Part shown: positions 38,671 through 39,129 of the stretch, in pieces
Layout of the letters: each line of letters begins with the position of its first letter
How positions within the stretch are numbered: position 1 is the first letter of the stretch
Origin: Escherichia phage RB14
Sequence record: NC_012638.1
Strand: one strand, 5' to 3'
DNA length: 64,000 nt
Translations under genes and position numbers: made by a program
The notes under the pieces: model-generated
The model's database searches: none
The model's input: the letters and a program-made list of their open reading frames with translations, nothing else
What the model was told of the DNA's origin: nothing

Positions 38671-39129
38671 TTATTTTAAATCGTCTGCCCAATCGAGTTT
38701 AAGAGGTTCTTTGTATTCACGATCTAATACGACCGGAATTTGTACATCACCGCTAAATGATAAGGGCCCAACATTATAAGACAATGTTATATGCGGTGTG
38801 TAATCATCAAAATCATGTGTAGCACCTAGTGCCCGCGCATACATGTGTCGACAGCGCAGATATTCAGAATCTAGTACAAGTACAAGAGTCGATCCATCTT
38901 GTGTTTTCCATACTTCTAAATGCCCAGAAGAAGCTACTTCAAAACTTCCGCTTGATGGAACATACGGAACATTTACTCTTGAATAACATATGGTCGAATG
39001 AATTTTTTCTCTAGGAACTGGATTAGGAACACGTAAAGAGCGCTGAAGTTCTTCCAGCGCATCAAGTGTTAATTCTGAAAACTTAGCTGCTACATAAAGA
39101 CCCGTTGAAAAGTCTTTAAATTCCATCAT
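38671..39129 (-). CDS. 57B: gp57B (Acb1 anti-CBASS phosphodiesterase in T4)
   Basis: 152 aa as in T4; between 57A and the ipI locus. Confidence 0.78.

Follow-up and report, generated by a model that had tools for sequence, protein, structure and literature searches.

Predicted anti-CBASS genes acb1 and acb2 at their canonical positions in the genome of a T4-like phage

The anti-CBASS proteins of T4 and the analysed window

Two anti-CBASS proteins, Acb1 and Acb2, are known from phage T4. The first of them is the product of gene 57B (NP_049750.1). It was named Acb1 by Hobbs et al. 2022, who found it by activity-guided fractionation as a factor which cleaves 3'3'-cGAMP (PMC9117128). Further substrates of T4 Acb1 are cUA and cAAA, while cGG is left uncleaved; the fold of the protein is that of a 2H phosphoesterase, common to LigT (PMC9117128). 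Its catalytic tetrad, HxT/HxT, consists of H44, T46, H113 and T115. The H44A/H113A protein is catalytically dead, and its effect on the effectors Cap5 and CapV is lost (PMC9117128).

The second protein is the product of vs.4 (NP_049728.1; PDB 7UQ2). Jenson et al. 2023 described the Vs.4 hexamer, which takes up three molecules of cGAMP (Kd ~30 nM; PMC10097602). In this structure Y8 and F82 provide base stacking, polar contacts are made by Y8, H11, K23 and R79, and the interface of the hexamer is built of L29, F33, A66, A73 and A77; the alleles S74N, T12I and A77I cause loss of function (PMC10097602). According to the preprint of Cao et al. 2023, T4-Acb2 binds cyclic dinucleotides and does not bind cA3, which was attributed to Y37, A57, L60, D61 and T64 together with the geometry of the helices (PMC10312549). 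Further, Acb2 was found to trigger Panoptes, and phage T2 was described as carrying a mutation which disrupts the dinucleotide site (PMC12657218).

We compared a window of 64,000 nucleotides, which is the whole stretch of DNA analysed here, with T4 and its relatives. Local blastn against T4 revealed that the window is collinear with T4 34538..99885 (34.5-99.9 kb) and that the collinearity is broken by indels. Hundreds of Tequatrovirus genomes were matched by megablast, in which the 57B region agreed with the RB3 group at 97% identity and the vs block with AR1 at 99.3%. Judging by its sequence, the phage is a T4-like mosaic Tequatrovirus, since even the best record for a 24-kb query taken from the window reached only ~95-97% identity over 94-96% of the query length. 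The gene orders vs.6-vs.5-vs.4-vs.3-regB and 1-57A-57B-ip are the same in the window as in T4, T2 and RB3.

We estimate the probability that this T4-like window carries both known T4 anti-CBASS genes, those of Acb1 and Acb2, at their canonical positions at approximately 95%. Identity to the T4 proteins, family membership, functional residues, gene context and the spread of the alleles were observed directly, and the biochemical activities are assigned to the window proteins from published work on the T4 proteins. Neither of the two ORFs is a chance feature, because the E-values obtained against solved structures were ~1e-53 or lower. The features discussed below are collected in Table 1.

Table 1. 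Location and description of the genes discussed in the text. The last line refers to the T2 record, all others to the window.
Feature	Coordinates	Strand	Description
seg-like ORF	18049..18768	-	239 aa; GIY-YIG-type N-terminus; weakly similar to SegB and SegC of T4 (tblastn)
vs.3 homologue	28203..28481	-	directly downstream of acb2; 92 aa from ATG; PHROG 2037, E=2e-40; T4 annotation
acb2 (vs.4)	28481..28747	-	predicted cyclic-dinucleotide sponge; 88 aa; corrected ATG start
vs.5 homologue	28740..28961	-	directly upstream of acb2; 73 aa; PHROG 1986, E=1e-43; stop overlaps acb2 start
ipIV	30338..30811	-	157 aa; 100% identical to phage T2 ipIV
ten tRNA genes	36093..36920	-	Arg, Asn, Tyr, Met, Thr, Ser, Pro, Gly, Leu, Gln
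ipI	37981..38268	-	product 100% identical to T4 IPI; PF11634; begins MKTFKEF
Ip5	38341..38598	-	98.8% identity to T2 ip5; PHROG 3499; begins MKTFKEF
acb1 (57B)	38671..39129	-	2H-phosphoesterase, predicted CBASS cyclic-oligonucleotide cleavage; 152 aa; ATG start
57A	39126..39356	-	tail-fibre chaperone gene, upstream of acb1; 76 aa; synteny with T4 and RB3 annotation
T2 Vs.4 (YP_010073770.1; NC_054931)	8591..8851	-	annotated N-terminus MKILRD-KPH

Outside of the two anti-CBASS loci, the window differed from T4 in several places. The place occupied in T4 by denV, ipII and ipIII is taken in the window by ipIV. We did not find any match to mobB, mobC, mobD, I-TevII, denV or ipIII in the window (tblastn, E<=1e-3), and ipII gave a weak match to the ORF of ipIV (tblastn, E=2e-4). 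With no denV or ipIII and only this weak match of ipII, the arrangement is therefore T2-like, without the gene of the UV-repair endonuclease V. SegB and SegC matched the window weakly in tblastn, and only at the seg-like ORF, which probably encodes a homing endonuclease of this kind. The ORF lies just upstream of the nrdC.10 equivalent, and the segment 18051..18786 of the window has no T4 counterpart. The set of ten tRNA genes is the same as in RB3, whereas T4 possesses eight, among which segB is located.

Gene 57B and its surroundings

The initial annotation had assigned Acb1 to a 152-aa ORF located between 57A and the internal-protein locus. The ORF, which begins with ATG, was recovered at exactly these coordinates, and its product proved to be residue-for-residue identical to T4 57B/Acb1 NP_049750.1 (152/152, 100%; BLASTP against the T4 product translated from NC_000866). 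The window and T4 genes agree at all but 8 of the 459 nucleotide positions. All eight differences are synonymous, which indicates purifying selection on acb1.

Further, the window protein matched the Pfam family PF23474 'Anti-CBASS protein Acb1' with 202.7 bits (cutoff 27). In this alignment residues 9-150 of the protein corresponded to positions 1-144 of the 144 in the profile, and no other Pfam family appeared within the reporting limit of E<=0.01. Comparison with the structure of Acb1 from Erwinia phage FBB1 (PDB 7T26/7T27) gave E=4.2e-62; residues 1-142 of the 7T26_A chain were aligned to residues 9-149 of the window protein, with the C-terminal lid region covered. Both catalytic histidines, H44 and H113, were read in the translation, as the assignment of the ORF to Acb1 demanded. 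They stand within H44-S45-T46 and H113-I114-T115, so that the HxT/HxT tetrad is complete. Apart from the sequence and the tetrad, the window gene shares with that of T4 the place downstream of 57A and the ATGA overlap with it. Given 100% identity to the assayed T4 protein, the window Acb1 would be expected to cleave cyclic oligonucleotides.

The Acb1 query matched 444 phage records among public phage genomes at protein identity of at least 99%. The start of 57B in T2 and in an old T4 record is annotated at the second ATG, which gives a protein of 151 aa; the numbering used in the literature is that of 152 aa.

The RefSeq product name of 57B in T4, T2 and RB3 is 'RNA ligase', and PHROG 755, to which 57B belongs, bears the same description. 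Together with the 2H phosphoesterase fold common to Acb1 and LigT (PMC9117128), these names speak for another role of 57B, that of an RNA ligase or of a LigT-like 2',3'-cyclic phosphodiesterase of RNA repair, for which anti-CBASS activity would not be the main one. We consider such a role very improbable. The name 'RNA ligase' is a label based on the fold and is older than the biochemistry of Acb1, while the identical T4 protein was purified as the factor cleaving 3'3'-cGAMP, with cUA and cAAA also cleaved, and H44A/H113A removed its effect on the Cap5/CapV effectors (PMC9117128). Moreover, it is the dedicated Pfam family of Acb1 that the window protein matches at 202.7 bits. On the basis of this biochemistry and of the PF23474 match, we rejected 'RNA ligase' as the primary function of 57B. 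An additional RNA substrate or a secondary activity of the ligase type may accompany the cleavage of cyclic oligonucleotides by Acb1.

The stop codon of 57A overlaps the start codon of 57B as ATGA (junction GAAGAATGATGG), and our scan did not detect any promoter-like site between the two genes. Because of both these features, acb1 is probably co-transcribed and translationally coupled with 57A. In the promoter and terminator scans performed around acb1 and acb2, the counts of promoter-like sites were no higher than those in shuffled sequence, and a dedicated promoter was not identified for either of the genes. Since no gene-specific promoter was found in these scans, the timing of expression of acb1 and acb2 is presumed to be as in T4. 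The sole notable sites in the scans were twin matches to TTTACA-17-TACTAT, which precede two internal-protein genes.

The internal-protein locus reported next to 57B is indeed there, but it consists of two genes, Ip5 and ipI. As in T2 and RB3, an inserted Ip5 separates 57B from ipI; in T4 the single ipI follows 57B directly. T4 IPI, with which the product of the window ipI is identical, is a nuclease inhibitor. We also observed a direct repeat of 123 nt, with 87% identity between its copies (38234..38356 and 38564..38686), which lie ahead of both internal-protein genes. Each copy contains the promoter-like TTTACA-17-TACTAT together with the beginning of the MKTFKEF leader, and the upstream copy extends into the final 16 nt of acb1. 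The repeat looks like a recombination cassette by which internal-protein genes are shuffled among T-even phages.

Gene vs.4: residues, allele and start codon

Acb2 (Vs.4) had been placed in the vs.x block only tentatively, and the comparison with T4 upheld this placement. Translated from ATG, the window protein is identical in 84 of 88 residues (95%) to T4 Vs.4 (crystal structure 7UQ2); the two have the same length of 88 aa and the same vs.5-vs.4-vs.3 context. It matched the Pfam family PF24729 (Acb2/Tad1 hairpin) with 71.2 bits (cutoff 27) and PHROG 717 with E=6.3e-32. The latter is the family cited by Jenson et al. for the homologues of Vs.4 (PMC10097602).

All residues of T4 Vs.4 published as contacts of cGAMP (Y8, H11, K23, S74, R79 and F82 in T4 numbering, 6/6) are kept in the window protein. 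The same is true for the residues which would form the hexamer interface (L29, F33, A66, A73 and A77, 5/5), and T12 and L60 are likewise kept. In an alignment of nine homologues, H11, K23, S74, R79 and F82 were invariant, and Y8 was absent in T2 only. The proposed cA3-excluding residues of T4 Vs.4 are retained too, as seen for L60 and D61 in a scripted check and for Y37, A57 and T64 in alignments with T4. As all these five residues are unchanged, we would expect a T4-like spectrum of ligands. With 95% identity to the T4 protein, the window Acb2 is also likely to bind 3'3'-cGAMP at nanomolar concentrations and to inhibit the activation of CapV.

The differences between the window protein and T4 Vs.4 amount to four substitutions, L44F, N46S, C50D and F52L. 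They are located in a hypervariable central segment, which in the alignment of nine sequences contained indels and showed little conservation, in contrast to the N- and C-terminal thirds, which were nearly invariant. At the level of DNA, 17 nucleotides differ from T4, 9 of them within codons 44-52, and this stretch looks like a small patch which was exchanged or evolves fast. The allele with F44/S46/D50/L52, which T4 lacks, is that of RB9, Shinka and similar phages; RB9 and Shinka carry it at 100% identity. In tblastn against public phage genomes, 62 phage records matched the window Acb2 at an identity of at least 99%, and at 90% or more the Tequatrovirus alleles of acb2 number roughly 490. 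Elsewhere acb2 is strongly conserved, and the clustering of changes in codons 44-52 could possibly mean more than neutral drift. It is doubtful, though, that the central segment is under diversifying selection, be it for a different choice of ligand, so that less of the Panoptes decoy 2',3'-c-di-AMP is captured, for instance, or for escape from a host factor recognising Acb2, and we give this idea little credence.

The four substitutions within nine codons may also be read as a sign that the window Acb2 has decayed or shifted in specificity, as proposed for T2, which would leave Acb1 as the only protein effective against CBASS. Natural loss of Acb2 function was reported in T2 and PaMx41 under the pressure of Panoptes (PMC12657218), and the annotated T2 Vs.4 lacks the IKGY motif. 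Such a decay is hardly credible for the window protein. Its reading frame is intact, its N-terminus is complete, and none of the residues with a published role in binding or hexamerisation is changed. Further, the segment which contains the substitutions is one where clear homologues differ from each other, also by indels, and the allele occurs in the 62 phage records mentioned above. We rejected a decay of the T2 type on the grounds that the window protein has its entire N-terminus intact, Y8 included.

In T2 the locus of vs.4 is the same, and its product is identical to the T4 allele from K9 on. Its annotated N-terminus lacks both IKGY and Y8, the latter of which is kept in the window copy. 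This annotated N-terminus fits the published suggestion that dinucleotide binding by Acb2 was lost in T2. Since the T4-type functional N-terminus of Acb2 is kept in the window, the window phage is predicted to keep Acb2 working as a sponge, to be protected against CBASS of the cGAMP type and, unlike T2, to be visible to guards of the Panoptes type.

The ORF in which Acb2 was initially sought, 28481..28783 on the minus strand, is a mechanical call of 100 aa from TTG. The ORF is real, but its start had to be moved to ATG 28747. In the 100-aa reading it matched chain A of PDB 7UQ2 ('Vs.4') with E=1.4e-53, and the start of the crystallised chain, S-MIEDIK, falls at residue 12/13 of the mechanical ORF. 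ATG 28747 is preceded by a Shine-Dalgarno-like run, GGTGAGGAAG, and overlaps the stop codon of vs.5. The N-terminus MIEDIKGY, obtained with this start, is common to the window Acb2 and to the annotations of T4, a15, Ac3 and Merlin. Because of the run, the overlap and the match to T4 and the other homologues, we place the biological start of acb2, on sequence grounds, at ATG 28747, which gives 88 aa. Translation of the 100 aa from TTG at 28783, where the mechanical call begins, is extremely improbable and was rejected, as its 12 additional codons lie, in a different frame, over the end of vs.5, and both the ribosome-binding site before ATG 28747 and the N-termini of the T4, a15, Ac3 and Merlin annotations and of the crystallised construct, all of which begin with MIEDIK, favour the ATG.

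T4 vs.5 matched the window in two frames in tblastn, and a difference by frameshift is therefore implied. The length of vs.5 is 73 aa in the window, 58 aa in T4 and 45 aa in T2. Given these lengths, the immediate upstream neighbour of acb2 is structurally unstable among close relatives. On the other side, at the junction of acb2 and vs.3 (TACTAATGGCT), the stop and start codons overlap as TAATG.

Predicted role of the two proteins

The mechanism outlined here was established with the T4 proteins and, in view of their identity, would hold for those of the window. Upon infection, the CD-NTases of CBASS would make cyclic oligonucleotides. Acb1 would hydrolyse those which contain adenosine in a metal-independent reaction of two steps at H44/T46/H113/T115. 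It would open the 3'-5' bonds located 3' of adenosine in 3'3'-cGAMP, cUA, cAAA and cAAG, by which the second messenger of CBASS would be destroyed. The Acb2 hexamer would hold three cyclic dinucleotides between paired protomers, by pi-stacking of Y8/F82 and polar contacts of H11, K23 and R79; the Kd for cGAMP would lie at about 30-80 nM. Sequestered in this manner, the signal would be kept from the CBASS effectors. The two proteins would be complementary, since Acb1 covers cAAA and cAAG, which Acb2 of the T4 type does not bind, and together they would hold the activation of effectors below the threshold.

In summary, both genes belong to known families and occupy their usual places; the biology is already known, and no new biology is implied. 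The window phage is predicted to resist CBASS of the cGAMP, cUA and cAAA types by degradation and sequestration of the signal. The practical value of these results lies in annotation, as many public records describe these genes as 'RNA ligase' or 'hypothetical protein', and the start of Acb2 belongs at the ATG.
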